A stretch of 32,034 bases of DNA from Elusimicrobiota bacterium (GCA_027319565.1 DAHVNA010000024.1:1-32034); one strand, 5' to 3'; positions 1 through 7,424 are shown, numbered from the stretch's first letter. Numbers and translations are program-made. Notes: generated from the sequence alone by a model not told the origin.

Positions 1-107
1 CAGCCCTTTAAGATTTTCTTGTCCGGCGGGACCAAAGAAAAACCACCTATAAACGATTCTAGGGCCATTCCGTGCCAGCCCTTTAAGATTTTCTTGTCCG
101 GCGGGAC
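1..107 (-). CRISPR. Type V-B CRISPR array, leader-proximal end; truncated by window edge (one full repeat, one spacer, one partial repeat)
   Basis: 1-32 is identical to 76-107. The full repeat is taken as 72-107 (36 nt), minus strand GTCCCGCCGGACAAGAAAATCTTAAAGGGCTGGCAC; the 3' TGGCAC end is typical of Cas12b repeats. The spacer is 33-71 (39 nt if that boundary is right). Adjacent to cas2, cas4-cas1 and cas12b. Confidence 0.92.
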
Positions 108-244
108 TGCACTCTCTCAGAACAGCCTGATCTCGAGGAAAGAAACGCCAGAAAACCAGCGTTTTCGAGCGCCCCAATCATTTCCCATACGCCATCTCAC
201 AATTTTCAAGCCAGCGGAGCCTCCACACTCTATAAAATCCCCTC
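108..244 (-). promoter_or_regulatory. Putative CRISPR leader
   Basis: Non-coding stretch between the predicted tracrRNA 3' hairpin and the first repeat. Positional inference only. Confidence 0.5.
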
Positions 245-385
245 GAGCGGCTTATCGGCGCAAGCCGCACTCCGTCCCGCTCGAAATGTCAAAGATCAAG
301 AAAATATCAAAAGACTCCCCAATTTTGATGGCTTTGTGGGCCTCGTGGCACTAATTGAGGTTAAACTGTAGCCTGTAGCTACGAG
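245..385 (-). ncRNA. Cas12b tracrRNA (ends approximate)
   Basis: Minus-strand GUGCC (347-351) pairs with repeat 3' GGCAC. The anti-repeat at 297-316 pairs 19/20 (three G-U) with repeat nt 12-31. GCGGGAC (274-280) pairs with repeat nt 1-7. Internal stems: 368-372/378-382, 317-324/353-360, 330-332/340-342. 3' hairpin: 247-253/262-268. Lies between cas2 and the array, as in characterised V-B loci. Confidence 0.82.
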
Positions 386-390
386 TCATT

Positions 391-678
391 TTAATAAATT
401 AATAATTTCCTGTCTACAATCTCAATTGGACGTCCCATGCTTTCAACAATTCCAGAAACATCCTCTGCTGAGCGAAGACGGATTAATAAGACTTGATCAT
501 CATCCTTTGATATTGCGTCGCGCATTCGGCCCTCTAACATAGCTTTATCGCGATCTCCTAGCTCACATAAAAAAACCGAGTATTGAAGAGCGTCTCCATA
601 ATCACGAGCAATACGGTACACACGCCGCCAACGCGCCGGGTCCGAAATATCGTAAGAGAGAATAAAGTATGATCTCAT
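391..678 (-). CDS. cas2: CRISPR-associated endoribonuclease Cas2
   Basis: 95 aa; SYDISD and LQYSVF motifs; 4-nt overlap with cas4-cas1. Confidence 0.96.
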   Translation of the reverse strand: MRSYFILSYDISDPARWRRVYRIARDYGDALQYSVFLCELGDRDKAMLEGRMRDAISKDDDQVLLIRLRSAEDVSGIVESMGRPIEIVDRKLLIY

Positions 679-2435
679 CGTGTTCGGAGCGGCTTATAAT
701 CCTGAACATCCCCTTCCAAAAAACGCCCCAAAAGACGGCATTCAACATCCAGAACTCTCCGATAGCTAATTCGATACCCAAATACGGGATGAGTAATCAA
801 TTCATCCATTCTTCTCTCATAACCAGCAATAAAACACGCCCTGCCTTCCTTACTCATCTGAACCTCGGTCGCAGTCATCAGAAAATGCGAAGGCTTCATT
901 TCACCCGTGTTGATGAGTCTCAGAACCATCGAGTCAACAACGAGAGGACGGAAAGGCTCCATCATGTCGAGCGCGAGGGCTGGCCTGCCAGCCTCCATCG
1001 AATGGTAAAAACCGAAATAGGGATCCAGTCCCACACCGATTAACGCGGCGACAAAATCACGAGCTAGCAACGTATAACCAAAGGAGAGCATGGCATTGAC
1101 CGGATCTTTAGGCGGTCGCTTGGTTCGCCCAATCATATTGAAGAAAGATGAGCTTTCGCTTGACCACCCTTGGCTTTCCGGCAAGTCATCAAAAGTCCGC
1201 TGCCCTGCCGAAGATTCCGCTTTGCGCCCAATCAACTCTGGGAAGGTCTCAAAGTAAACCTGCCCAGCCTTCCCTTCGTAGCCACGCAAACTCGGGATAT
1301 CCTTCGCGAGAATACAATTGTCAGCGGCTGTTTTTAATTGTTCCAGCGAGCCTTCCATCTTTTTTAAATTACGTCTTAGAAAAGTACGTTGATTCTCAAT
1401 TTTTGCCTGAACTATATCCTTCGATAAACGCAAGCAGGACTCCTCCACATTGAAATATCTAAACTGCGACACCCGAAGCGCGACATTTTTAGCGATGGGG
1501 GCCGTAGCGGTCCCCAGAAGTTTTCCTCCCGCCGAGAAGAAACTAACCGTGCGTTGTGCGGCAAGGAACAAATGCAATGCTTCCGTGCTGATCTGAACGT
1601 GTCCAAAAAGAGCGGCGTGCGCGATATCTTTAAAAGGAATTTCATCTACGACTTCATTGTTGGCGGAAACAACCACGCTTTCTCCCCTTTTTGAAATATG
1701 AGCGCCCTGGGTAACCACATAGAGAACGCCTGCGTCGTCTCGCCCGGGAATGATTCTCCGCGGCTCCCCAATCTTGCCTGCAAGCCTATTGGTTTCATCC
1801 GGAAGGCAAAAAACGTTGAGCGAACAACGGATGCACTTGGGGGAGTCTAGCAAAGGCGGTGGAATCGCTTGAGTAGAAGCTTTAGCCGCTCTGGCAATGA
1901 CATCCAAGACGGCGTTTACCAAATCAGGCGTAAACTCAATACGGACTTTCTTCTTTGACGCGCGGTAATAGATAAACCCATACTCTGATCGGTAACCGTT
2001 TTCGCGTAAAAGCAGGCCTTGGGCGCAAACCTGAACTTGGTCGTTCGGCCACGCATCGGACGAAAGAGACCAGTTCCCCAACTTGAATTCGGCATTGCCA
2101 GCGGGACCAGCCGAATGCTTGTATTCAAGCGCGGCCCAGTGGCCAGCTTCCTCTTCAATGGCGTCGAGCTTGCCGGTAATTCCAAGCTTGTCGCCAGTCA
2201 ATGAGAGGTTTTTGGTAAAGAAATTCTGTTGAGTTTCCTCTTCCTCTAATGTATCGGTCTTACCTTTTCCCTTACGCCGGACTTTTGATCGACTGGAGTC
2301 AACGCGTTTATGCTGGTATGAGCCCTGGACCGTATCGGCGCTTTCGCGAAAAAGGCCTTGTACATGCTCTAAATGGAATAGACGCGGGCAATAGACGTAT
2401 TCGTTGAGCATTCGCAACGGAATAAGCGAAGACAT
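675..2435 (-). CDS. cas1: Cas4-Cas1 fusion
   Basis: N-terminal Cas4: YCPR plus CIRCSLNVFC Fe-S cysteines, GKLD..EYK and QVCAQ motifs. C-terminal Cas1: GYEG, DPVNAMLSFGY, GFYH, LALDMMEPFRP. The fusion is typical of type V-B. Confidence 0.96.
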   Translation of the reverse strand: MSSLIPLRMLNEYVYCPRLFHLEHVQGLFRESADTVQGSYQHKRVDSSRSKVRRKGKGKTDTLEEEETQQNFFTKNLSLTGDKLGITGKLDAIEEEAGHWAALEYKHSAGPAGNAEFKLGNWSLSSDAWPNDQVQVCAQGLLLRENGYRSEYGFIYYRASKKKVRIEFTPDLVNAVLDVIARAAKASTQAIPPPLLDSPKCIRCSLNVFCLPDETNRLAGKIGEPRRIIPGRDDAGVLYVVTQGAHISKRGESVVVSANNEVVDEIPFKDIAHAALFGHVQISTEALHLFLAAQRTVSFFSAGGKLLGTATAPIAKNVALRVSQFRYFNVEESCLRLSKDIVQAKIENQRTFLRRNLKKMEGSLEQLKTAADNCILAKDIPSLRGYEGKAGQVYFETFPELIGRKAESSAGQRTFDDLPESQGWSSESSSFFNMIGRTKRPPKDPVNAMLSFGYTLLARDFVAALIGVGLDPYFGFYHSMEAGRPALALDMMEPFRPLVVDSMVLRLINTGEMKPSHFLMTATEVQMSKEGRACFIAGYERRMDELITHPVFGYRISYRRVLDVECRLLGRFLEGDVQDYKPLRTR

Positions 2436-5656: not shown

Positions 5657-5785
5657 TCACTGTAGCATTGCCTTCGCCGCAGAATAGGTCGGCGCGACAT
5701 ACGACACAGGATTTGGCATCGTGTCCGGCCTGGCCCACAACGCCATCGGACCCGAAATCTCAAGTTGCACTTTATGCGAATCCAT
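5657..5785 (-). pseudogene. cas5: Truncated Cas5 (type I-C-like N-terminal 42 aa)
   Basis: Hand translation MDSHKVQLEISGPMALWARPDTMPNPVSYVAPTYSAAKAMLQ* matches the Cas5 N-terminal signature (LE.SG..A...RP......SY..PT.SAA..ML). The stop lies 9 nt before the cas12b ATG. Confidence 0.8.
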
Positions 5786-5962: not shown

Positions 5963-6009
5963 TTCGACGGAATTCGACGGAATTCGACGGAATTCGACGG
6001 AATTCGACG
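5963..6009. repeat. Perfect tandem repeat (TTCGACGGAA) x4.7
   Basis: Directly visible; begins 5 nt after the stop codon of the AlbA_2 gene on the minus strand. Confidence 0.95.
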
Positions 6010-6014
6010 ACGCA

Positions 6015-7424
6015 TTACTCCCCCCTCTTTAAATGCCAGCGCGCGCCCCGAGCGTAGCCCCGGCAGATTACGAGTTTAAGGCGGCGCAAATGATTCAACT
6101 CATCACGGAGAGCTCTCTCCGTCGCGGCTGATTGAATGGCGGAAAGTATCTCCCCTAAGCGAAGAGGCCCCGCCGAAGCCAAGACATCAAGGACTTTCCT
6201 TTGTCTTTCCGTCAATTCATGGCCGATCTTCGTTGGAGGAAGGTAGCGAGTCGCCCGAAAGCAAACGACGACGCCTCCCGCCAGATCCGCGATCTCGGGC
6301 CGAGGCAGGCCGGCCCTCTCGGCCATTTCCGCCATTTTGATGGTTCCGCGACCCCAAGCCTCGATGAGGCCTCTCTTATAAAAAACGGAAGCGATGATTG
6401 GATTCCAAGGCAGGGATTCATGCGGCTCATAAAGATCGGAAATTTTAAGCCCAAAATGCAGGGAGCCGGAAGAGCTGATTTCCAAGCGGTCATCGTAAAT
6501 GGCGATGCCGACCGAACCGCCGCCGATGGAATAGTCCCTATGGCAAAAAGCGTTGGCCAGGGCCTCGCGAAGAGCCAATGGAGGATAAAGCGGGTCATCC
6601 TCGCGCTCAAAAAGATTGGGAACGACACGGCCGGCCACTGGAAGATGATCTCTCAAAAAGCGTTCGGCTCGAACAAGCAAATCAAAGACGTTGCCGTAAT
6701 AGCGGCGATTGTCGATAAACTCGGTCTTGTCTCGTCCTTTAAAGCGCGCGAGCTTAAGCAGGCATTGGGAATAATCGCCCTGGAGGCGGTCGGGACGCGC
6801 GAAAAGAATGACGGCGGCTCTCAGAAGTTTCTCCCCTTTCAGCAAGGCCAGCCCGCGTAAAAGGTCCGCCGGAACGCGCGTTCCGGGATCCTCACAACGG
6901 CCGCGCCGAACCGCTTCATCCATCGTCCTCCTAATTTCGTCTTCATCCAAATCATTGACGGTCCAGCCCTCGGCAAATTGGTTTTCCCAACGCGAAACGG
7001 AATGAAGCTCCTCCAACAGCATCCGGTTATAATCCTCGCGGGACATCTCCGCGTTGGTCGCGCCAACTCGATGGTAAGCCTTTCCTTGAAATGAATACGG
7101 ACGCCTGGAACCGCGCTCAAATGAAACAACGATCGCTTCACGACTTGAGCCAATCCGGATGCGCTCAATGGCGGGGAAAACGGGCGGCTCAATCATCCGC
7201 AGATAGACGGCGACATCATCGAGGGTTTTGTCGCTCGCTTCCTGGCCAACGACGCGCCCTTGCGGATCGACGCCGAAGATAACGCGCCCGCCTTTATGGT
7301 TGAGCATGGCGCAAACGGCCCTGGCGGCCTGGCCGCGCTGGCCCGTGGTGGACTTAAACTCCTGGACTTCAGATTCGCCTTGCGCCGCCCAGTCTGAAAG
7401 CCGATCTTCCGCCGTTTTCGTCAA
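6015..7424 (-). CDS. Schlafen/AlbA_2 domain + RecG-C-like ATP-binding domain (HATPase_c_4) + winged-HTH protein
   Basis: GESEVQEFK, AMLNHKGGRVIFGV (AlbA_2); LREALANAFCHRDY, IYDDRLEISSSG, NPIIA, IEAWGRG; C-terminal LTERQRKVL..HTH. TTG start. Confidence 0.88.
   Translation of the reverse strand: MTKTAEDRLSDWAAQGESEVQEFKSTTGQRGQAARAVCAMLNHKGGRVIFGVDPQGRVVGQEASDKTLDDVAVYLRMIEPPVFPAIERIRIGSSREAIVVSFERGSRRPYSFQGKAYHRVGATNAEMSREDYNRMLLEELHSVSRWENQFAEGWTVNDLDEDEIRRTMDEAVRRGRCEDPGTRVPADLLRGLALLKGEKLLRAAVILFARPDRLQGDYSQCLLKLARFKGRDKTEFIDNRRYYGNVFDLLVRAERFLRDHLPVAGRVVPNLFEREDDPLYPPLALREALANAFCHRDYSIGGGSVGIAIYDDRLEISSSGSLHFGLKISDLYEPHESLPWNPIIASVFYKRGLIEAWGRGTIKMAEMAERAGLPRPEIADLAGGVVVCFRATRYLPPTKIGHELTERQRKVLDVLASAGPLRLGEILSAIQSAATERALRDELNHLRRLKLVICRGYARGARWHLKRGE

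Follow-up and report, generated by a model that had tools for sequence, protein, structure and literature searches.

The window analysed here, a stretch of 32,034 nucleotides from an Elusimicrobiota bacterium, very probably encodes, on its minus strand between position 382 and approximately 288, the tracrRNA belonging to the type V-B (Cas12b) CRISPR system next to it. Judged by its sequence, the predicted RNA is an ordinary addition to the known Cas12b tracrRNA family and is homologous to a tracrRNA that has been validated at the bench. An earlier note had proposed a Cas12b-type tracrRNA with the order of elements known from Alicyclobacillus, and this assignment is well supported: type V-B genes adjoin the RNA, its stems and its 20-nt anti-repeat co-vary, and a covariance model of the family aligns it with the validated tracrRNA of Alicyclobacillus acidiphilus.

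The minus strand of the window reads cas12b, cas4/cas1, cas2, candidate RNA, leader and CRISPR array, which is the type V-B layout (Table 1). The best solved relative of the encoded Cas12b is BthCas12b (5wti, 1.3e-141), and the acidic residues D559, E810 and D930 are invariant in a comparison of 10 homologues. The end of another contig of the same genome, C47, carries the same repeat, one more spacer and then a degenerate terminal repeat. As C47 holds these further repeat copies together with the terminal repeat, the array has been split by assembly and is read leader-first from the window. The genome also encodes RNase III (248.8 bits against a cut-off of 166). Seven runs are listed as containing this DNA, none of them recorded as RNA; their labels are those of mine drainage and sediment metagenomes, and the organism is uncultured.

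Table 1. Features of the type V-B locus and of the candidate RNA (positions counted from the first letter of the window; RNA elements read 5' to 3' on the minus strand).
Feature	Position	Strand	Evidence or remark
cas12b, 1067 aa	2444..5647	minus	NCBIfam NF033949 Cas12b, 611.6 bits (cut-off 150); five C2c1 Pfam domains
cas4/cas1 fusion gene	675..2435	minus	NF049935, 678.7 bits (cut-off 560); Pfam Cas1 and Cas4
cas2, 95 aa	391..678	minus	Pfam CRISPR_Cas2, 1.3e-14; TIGR01573, 30.4 bits (cut-off 24.5)
Promoter-like site, TAGACA-17 nt-TAAAAT, overlapping the cas2 stop codon	388..416	minus	10/12 consensus matches
Stem 1, 5' hairpin GUAGC-UACAG-GCUAC (GUAGC 382-378, loop UACAG, GCUAC 372-368)	368..382	minus	
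L2 linker AGUUUAA, 7 nt	361..367	minus	
Stem 2, 5' arm CCUCAAUU, partner 324-317	353..360	minus	
Short anti-repeat GUGCC, partner repeat nt 32-36 (GGCAC), pseudoknot	347..351	minus	pairing potential only
Stem 3, small hairpin GGC-CCACAAA-GCC (GGC 342-340, GCC 332-330)	330..342	minus	
Stem 2, 3' arm AAUUGGGG, partner 360-353	317..324	minus	
Long anti-repeat, lower part, AGUCUUUUGAUAUUUUCUUG, 20 nt, partner repeat nt 12-31	297..316	minus	
Linker AUCUUUGACAUUU with UCUUUGA motif	284..296	minus	
Distal complement GCGGGAC, exact complement of repeat nt 1-7, 16 nt after the long anti-repeat	274..280	minus	
Conserved 3' stem (T-stem), CGAGCGG 283-277 / CCGCUCG 250-244	244..283	minus	
GC-rich hairpin, GCGGCUU 268-262 / AAGCCGC 253-247	247..268	minus	
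Leader box GCGCUCGAAAACG	160..172	minus	
First CRISPR repeat, 36 nt, full	72..107	minus	repeat ends set by further copies on contig C47
Spacer, 39 nt	33..71	minus	between the two repeats of the window
Second repeat, cut at the contig end	1..32	minus	

Several further features were observed around these genes. A short minus-strand ORF lies directly upstream of cas12b (5660-5785) and, by reading, resembles the N-terminus of Cas5, an assignment that is putative. The 10-nt unit TTCGACGGAA is repeated in tandem 4.7 times between cas12b and the next gene upstream (5963-6012). The product of that upstream gene (6015-7424, minus strand) has 469 aa and combines Schlafen AlbA_2 and HATPase_c_4 domains; proteins with this pairing are commonly annotated as putative regulators or helicase-like proteins. 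A plus-strand ORF at 19-354 belongs to no Pfam family and was treated as spurious, and an inverted repeat (327-342 / 5732-5747) was judged by rough reckoning to be at chance level.

Read on the minus strand, all of the elements listed in the earlier note are present at their places. The long anti-repeat at 316-297 pairs with repeat nt 12-31 in 19 of 20 positions by hand count, including three G-U pairs and one C.U mismatch, and the same arms are 80% Watson-Crick complementary. A scan of both strands of the 2.03-Mb genome for 20-nt stretches able to pair with repeat nt 12-31 at 19/20, with G-U allowed, returned position 316 alone, besides the antisense strand of the repeats themselves. Co-folding of the RNA with the repeat, a check set beforehand and carried out with 316-241 and repeat nt 1-31, paired 30 of the 31 repeat bases and left an 11-nt bulge on the tracrRNA side after the 20-nt stretch. 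The earlier count of 31 pairable bases out of the 36 in the repeat was summed correctly, and the co-fold brings it to 35 of 36, that is, 30 of repeat nt 1-31 together with GGCAC. The linker 3' of the long anti-repeat occupies the position at which the validated A. acidiphilus tracrRNA ends, and its UCUUUGA motif recurs, as read by eye, 3' of the anti-repeat in many Cas12b loci with differing repeats. Folded alone, the RNA shows no excess stability (z = -0.01 for 382-288 and -0.72 for 382-241), and stem 2 was not recovered in the minimum-energy fold of the 95-nt RNA by itself.

The assignment is carried mainly by conservation of the pairing. Cas12b is present in 3 of 61 related genomes, and scanning of genome and metagenome collections yielded 66 and 75 loci, respectively. 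Five relatives, with Cas12b proteins 88%, 54-60%, 58%, 49% and 47% identical to that of the window, share the same layout of cas2, RNA, leader and array. Together with the window they form a six-locus alignment (A2), which begins at the cas2 stop, takes in everything up to and including the first repeat, represents about four independent lineages and is the alignment on which pairs were counted. Across these six loci, the whole model, comprising the scaffold, both anti-repeats and the T-stem, is paired in 92.0% of 286 cells, as against 39.7-49.1% when the partners are slid by 1-3 columns; 20 of its 48 pairs have changed on both sides, and none of 500 shuffles reached any of these measures. The long anti-repeat is paired in 94.9% of cells over 20 pairs, nine of which change on both sides along with the repeat of each locus, and GUGCC:GGCAC is paired in all cells of all six loci (100%), with one G-U as its variation. 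The four outer pairs of stem 1 (79.2% paired) are all compensatory, as are five of the eight pairs of stem 2 (81.3% paired), and stem 3 is paired in 83.3% of cells.

The same pattern extends to a wider set of 32 loci. Here, 91.1% of cells are paired compared with 33.2-39.2% for slid partners, and 21 of 23 pairs are compensatory, in an alignment fitted to the covariance model R1, which favours the pairing score. Stem 1 is paired in 93.5% of cells with all four outer pairs varying on both sides, and its closing C-G pair is kept in 28 of 31. All eight pairs of stem 2 are compensatory in this set, and stem 3 co-varies as well.

Model R1 was built from the six sequences of alignment A2. Searched against 100 Cas12b-type loci (1.0 Mb), it returned 33 matches at E < 0.01, all on the cas12b strand and downstream of cas12b or cas2, and it places the same RNA beside cas12b in 32 loci belonging to several phyla. 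Among 41 distant RuvC loci there was no full-length R1 match. In the 61 related genomes, matches were confined to the three with Cas12b and to one orphan copy. One of the matches in the Cas12b-type loci lies in A. acidiphilus NBRC 100859 (L055, 11520-11678, 33.6 bits, E 1.7e-6 in 1.0 Mb) and spans the bench-validated tracrRNA that was used in vitro by Teng et al. 2018, with R1 aligning over its full length, element for element. The ends of that tracrRNA are set by primer rows for the T7 template in the supplement of PMC6255809; within the L055 match, it starts at stem 1 and ends just before the CGAGCG stem.

An Rfam search of window positions 1-700 with E values up to 1 matched no family, tracrRNA included, and the validated A. 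acidiphilus tracrRNA likewise gave no Rfam match. The null result for the window therefore says little. Apparently no model in the Rfam library is able to detect V-B tracrRNAs.

Three of the loci that were scanned showed rearranged or incomplete surroundings. The orphan copy (L151, contig G021:C6, 182-528; R1 E 4.4e-7) comes from a genome in which the Cas12b protein query was negative, and alongside it stand the 3' stem, the leader box and one repeat whose last bases are GGCAC; no cas genes were found in the first 1500 nt of its 2681-nt contig, nor a second repeat on that contig. In a Paceibacteria-labelled locus (L013, identical to L076, 4960-6400), an insertion of about 1.5 kb interrupts cas4/cas1 and carries an opposite-strand ORF of 451 aa that resembles a transposase by look, while the tracrRNA, leader and first repeat are intact. 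In a Planctomycetia-labelled locus (L040, 6001-9392), cas12b is broken into several ORFs, and neither cas4/cas1 nor cas2 was found in the 15-kb locus; the tracrRNA-like RNA, 3' stem, leader box and array are retained.

The AaCas12b tracrRNA of A. acidiphilus is nearly identical to the AacCas12b tracrRNA of A. acidoterrestris. The candidate RNA resembles it in lying after cas2 and before the array on the same strand, in having TAAAAT as the -10 hexamer shortly ahead of the 5' hairpin, in the succession of stem 1 with a CUAnAGG-type loop, linker, stem 2, GUGCC, stem 3 and 3' anti-repeat, and in a CGAGCG.../...CGCUCG stem right after the anti-repeat. Unlike these shared features, the two Cas12b proteins are only about 30% identical (L055). 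The 8-bp stem 2 and 3-bp stem 3 of the window are also points of difference. Moreover, the Alicyclobacillus anti-repeat runs almost unbroken to the 3' stem, whereas that of the window has a 20-nt lower part followed by a bulge of 11-16 nt on the tracrRNA side, and the distal complement of the window overlaps the 5' arm of the 3' stem. Functionally, truncation of stem-loops 1 and 2 abolishes AaCas12b activity and truncation of the crRNA/tracrRNA stem-loop is tolerated, as described in passages of PMC6255809. The neighbouring Cas12b of the window is predicted to need the candidate tracrRNA for guide use.

Similar elements are described for other Cas12b systems. Passages of the cryo-EM study of ChCas12b from Candidatus Hydrogenedentes (PMC12204704) describe a 5-bp stem 1, a 7-nt L2, a long-range stem 2, a 3-bp stem 3 and a long duplex, as well as a 5-bp duplex formed by an internal anti-repeat with the last five bases of the repeat, and the same elements are stated there for AacCas12b. 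The candidate RNA matches the ChCas12b sgRNA in its 5-bp stem 1 with a 5-nt loop, 7-nt L2, 5-bp short duplex and 3-bp stem 3, and differs from it in stem 2 (6 bp there, 8 bp in the window) and L3 (3 nt there, 1 nt in the window), in so far as these passages describe it (PMC12204704). Since the ChCas12b RNA in the same source is an engineered fusion with only 16 repeat bases, it is uninformative on a distal duplex or a 3' stem. For native Cas12b duplexes, the passages of Jiao et al. 2024 (PMC11246509) describe a bulged long stem, about 30 bp in length, and a short pseudoknot stem of 5 bp; in BhCas12b and BthCas12b the short duplex adjoins the guide and the bulge lies outside the nuclease-binding region, and for BthCas12b a long anti-repeat of 18 nt suffices. 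The co-fold of the window is comparable in pairing 30 of 31 repeat bases in addition to the 5-bp short duplex. Unlike the bulge in those passages, that of the window is large, is confined to the tracrRNA side, and has a far side that competes with an intramolecular stem. Because two duplexes, the long one split by a bulge, are thus already described in this source (PMC11246509), the three-part anti-repeat of the earlier note is not new. Like the tracrRNA of Cas9 (type II), the RNA is trans-encoded and its anti-repeat pairs with pre-crRNA repeats. Unlike that tracrRNA, V-B tracrRNAs have a 3' anti-repeat in two discontinuous pieces and are without a nexus or terminator tail, as far as the passages of PMC6546382 describe them.

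The ends of the transcript can be placed by comparison. The promoter-like site at 416-388 is the only sense-strand sigma-70-like site within window 1-800, in scans for promoters and terminators that are simple consensus matches and whose consensus may not be this organism's promoter type. Such a site stands at the homologous place in five of the six loci scanned (the window, L055, L075, L011 and L012), and in L013 it lies about 25 nt further from the hairpin. In A. acidiphilus (L055), the end of the -10 hexamer stands 7 nt ahead of where the validated tracrRNA begins, and this spacing supports the start predicted near 382-380 in the window. The 3' end would fall at about 288, by the position of the end of the validated RNA. 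No canonical terminator was found 3' of the RNA in any of the six loci scanned (the window, L055, L075, L011, L012 and L013), and the sense-strand terminator calls in the latter five fell only on stem 1 (L055) and stem 3 (L011). We considered the GC-rich hairpin (268-247) as an intrinsic terminator and rejected it: there is no minus-strand terminator-like site in 390-1, and either of the two 3' stems is followed by AGGGGAUUUUAUAG and not by a U-run.

The T-stem is paired in 100% of cells in all six loci and in 98.3% of cells in the 32 loci. In a sequence-only alignment of 20 loci, its cells comprise 129 Watson-Crick pairs, 8 G-U, 1 A-C and 2 others; the 8-to-1 excess of G-U over A-C on the sense strand (p = 0.039, kinship of the loci ignored) suggests that the T-stem pairs in a sense-strand RNA. 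It ends 131-138 nt before the first repeat in 17 of the 20 loci with both the stem and a detectable array, the exceptions being 121, 147 and 183 nt. At least 6 of its 7 pairs are formed in 23 of 27 loci in which cas4/cas1-cas2 precede the RNA and in 2 of 5 loci lacking these genes; its presence does not follow the adaptation genes cleanly. A CTCG box followed by an A-rich run (GCUCGAAA-type) stands at the same place in all 20 aligned Cas12b leaders. The T-stem and this type of leader box were seen together in the window, L055, L048, L028, L083 and 15 other loci, spread over several phyla. The leader box was also considered as an alternative partner of the T-stem 5' arm and was rejected by eye: the A-run persists irrespective of the sequence preceding the 5' arm, and L043 has an altered stem with an unaltered box. 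The text passages of PMC11246509, PMC12204704, PMC6546382, PMC6342934, PMC6255809, PMC9419969, PMC6546406 and PMC11797020 make no mention of the T-stem or the leader box, and we do not claim that either is unpublished.

The GC-rich hairpin with which the earlier note had closed the RNA is present and forms in the co-fold with the repeat, but only 73.8% of its cells are paired in the six loci, as against 100% for the overlapping CGAGCGG/CCGCUCG of the T-stem. The two are mutually exclusive because both use 250-247. An RNA free of the repeat prefers the T-stem, which is also found in the centroid fold of the free RNA. It is thus more likely that the T-stem accounts for the feature described as a GC-rich hairpin, and that the tail of the free RNA would form the T-stem rather than the GC hairpin.

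A similar outcome applies to the third, distal part of the anti-repeat. Its exact complement to the repeat is present, and in the co-fold repeat nt 1-11 are paired with the segment UUCG-A-GCGGGAC (285-274), in which one A is bulged, while the GC hairpin forms alongside. The energy of the window co-fold is -48.3 kcal/mol with the distal duplex and -43.2 kcal/mol with the T-stem enforced, a difference of 5.1 kcal/mol in favour of the duplex. Against this, the GCGGGAC helix taken in register is paired in only 61.9% of cells, is complete in two of six loci and has no compensatory change, and the minimum-energy co-fold keeps the intramolecular stem in three of the six loci (L012, L011 and L013). 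A distal duplex with the repeat 5' end is plausible but unproven, and the part in pre-crRNA processing that the earlier note suggested for it is hypothetical. It is nearly an even prospect, and falls just short of one, that the RNA is the same but that a distal duplex of 7 bp, or up to 11 bp, is absent or irrelevant, with the anti-repeat consisting of GUGCC and the 20 nt and the tail always folded as the T-stem. The full conservation of the T-stem in comparison with the distal helix favours such an arrangement, as does the validated A. acidiphilus tracrRNA, which needs nothing 3' of the anti-repeat and whose duplex with the crRNA may be truncated (passages of PMC6255809); BthCas12b is likewise content with its 18-nt long anti-repeat in the portions of PMC11246509 concerned. 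By analogy, a distal duplex would not be needed for cleavage. However, a complement of at least 7 bp to the repeat 5' end occurs in six of six loci at varying offsets: four loci have it 17-18 nt beyond the long anti-repeat, and two have it 69-81 nt beyond. When the 189-nt downstream region of the window was dinucleotide-shuffled 1000 times, only 2.6% of the shuffles matched the strength of the duplex with repeat nt 1-11, and the shares of shuffles doing as well in the six loci are 0.026, 0.085, 0.021, 0.025, 0.029 and below 0.001, which argues against irrelevance. The preference of the window co-fold for the distal duplex points the same way, and a native long duplex of about 30 bp is the norm in the passages of PMC11246509.

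Two other explanations concern the origin of the RNA rather than its tail. It is possible, but on balance unlikely, that the tracrRNA is the 5' part of one long transcript, which would run from the promoter at the cas2 stop through the T-stem and leader into the array and from which the tracrRNA would later be cut out by processing. The sole sigma-70-like site on the sense strand of 1-800, together with a lack of sense-strand terminators between 382 and the array and of canonical terminators between tracrRNA and array in the five other loci scanned, would fit such a transcript, and the ratio of G-U to A-C in the T-stem suggests that this region is transcribed. However, these scans are simple consensus matches with a consensus that may not be the host's, and the 8-to-1 ratio ignores relatedness. 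Far less credible is a decayed antisense copy of the repeat inside the leader that has no function of its own. Such copies come to mind since tracrRNA anti-repeats resemble inverted repeat copies, but the parts that are unlike the repeat (stems 1, 2 and 3 and the stem 1 loop) are conserved with compensatory changes in 32 loci of several phyla, and the anti-repeat tracks the repeat of each locus. Moreover, passages of PMC6255809 describe a homologous RNA that is required for AaCas12b cleavage in vitro and is inactive when stem-loops 1 and 2 are truncated.

A tracrRNA gene remains the preferred reading. The tail of the RNA could in addition belong to an undescribed element common to V-B loci, made up of a transcribed T-stem about 135 nt before the first repeat and the GCUCGAAA leader box. 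Since the 5' arm of the T-stem is overlapped by the distal anti-repeat in this lineage, pairing with the pre-crRNA would open the stem, and such a switch in conformation would couple guide loading to processing or to what becomes of the leader transcript; we consider this reading as a whole speculative and improbable.

With the preferred reading of a tracrRNA gene, a sigma-70-like promoter that overlaps the cas2 stop codon would drive transcription, starting near 382-380. The transcript would then base-pair with each pre-crRNA repeat, GUGCC with nt 32-36 and 316-297 with nt 12-31, and in this lineage 285-274 may also pair with repeat nt 1-11. The scaffold would be bound by Cas12b, and the long duplex would be trimmed by a host RNase, for which the genome-encoded RNase III is a candidate. 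The mature crRNA, consisting of the 3' part of the repeat and the spacer, would guide DNA cleavage. The earlier proposal that a single-guide RNA can be designed directly is reasonable by analogy, since AaCas12b tolerates truncation of the crRNA/tracrRNA stem-loop (as stated in passages of PMC6255809), but a fusion of 297 to repeat nt 12 still needs a loop.

The finding provides predicted guide-RNA parts for a compact Cas12b, with 1067 aa compared with 1108-1137 aa in the solved relatives that were matched, and design and testing of an sgRNA could begin immediately. The R1 covariance model finds V-B tracrRNAs across phyla, whereas Rfam matched neither the window nor the validated RNA. The T-stem and the leader box at its fixed spacing are the only unexplained parts and, if functional, they would bear on how V-B tracrRNA ends are formed or on how the leader acts.
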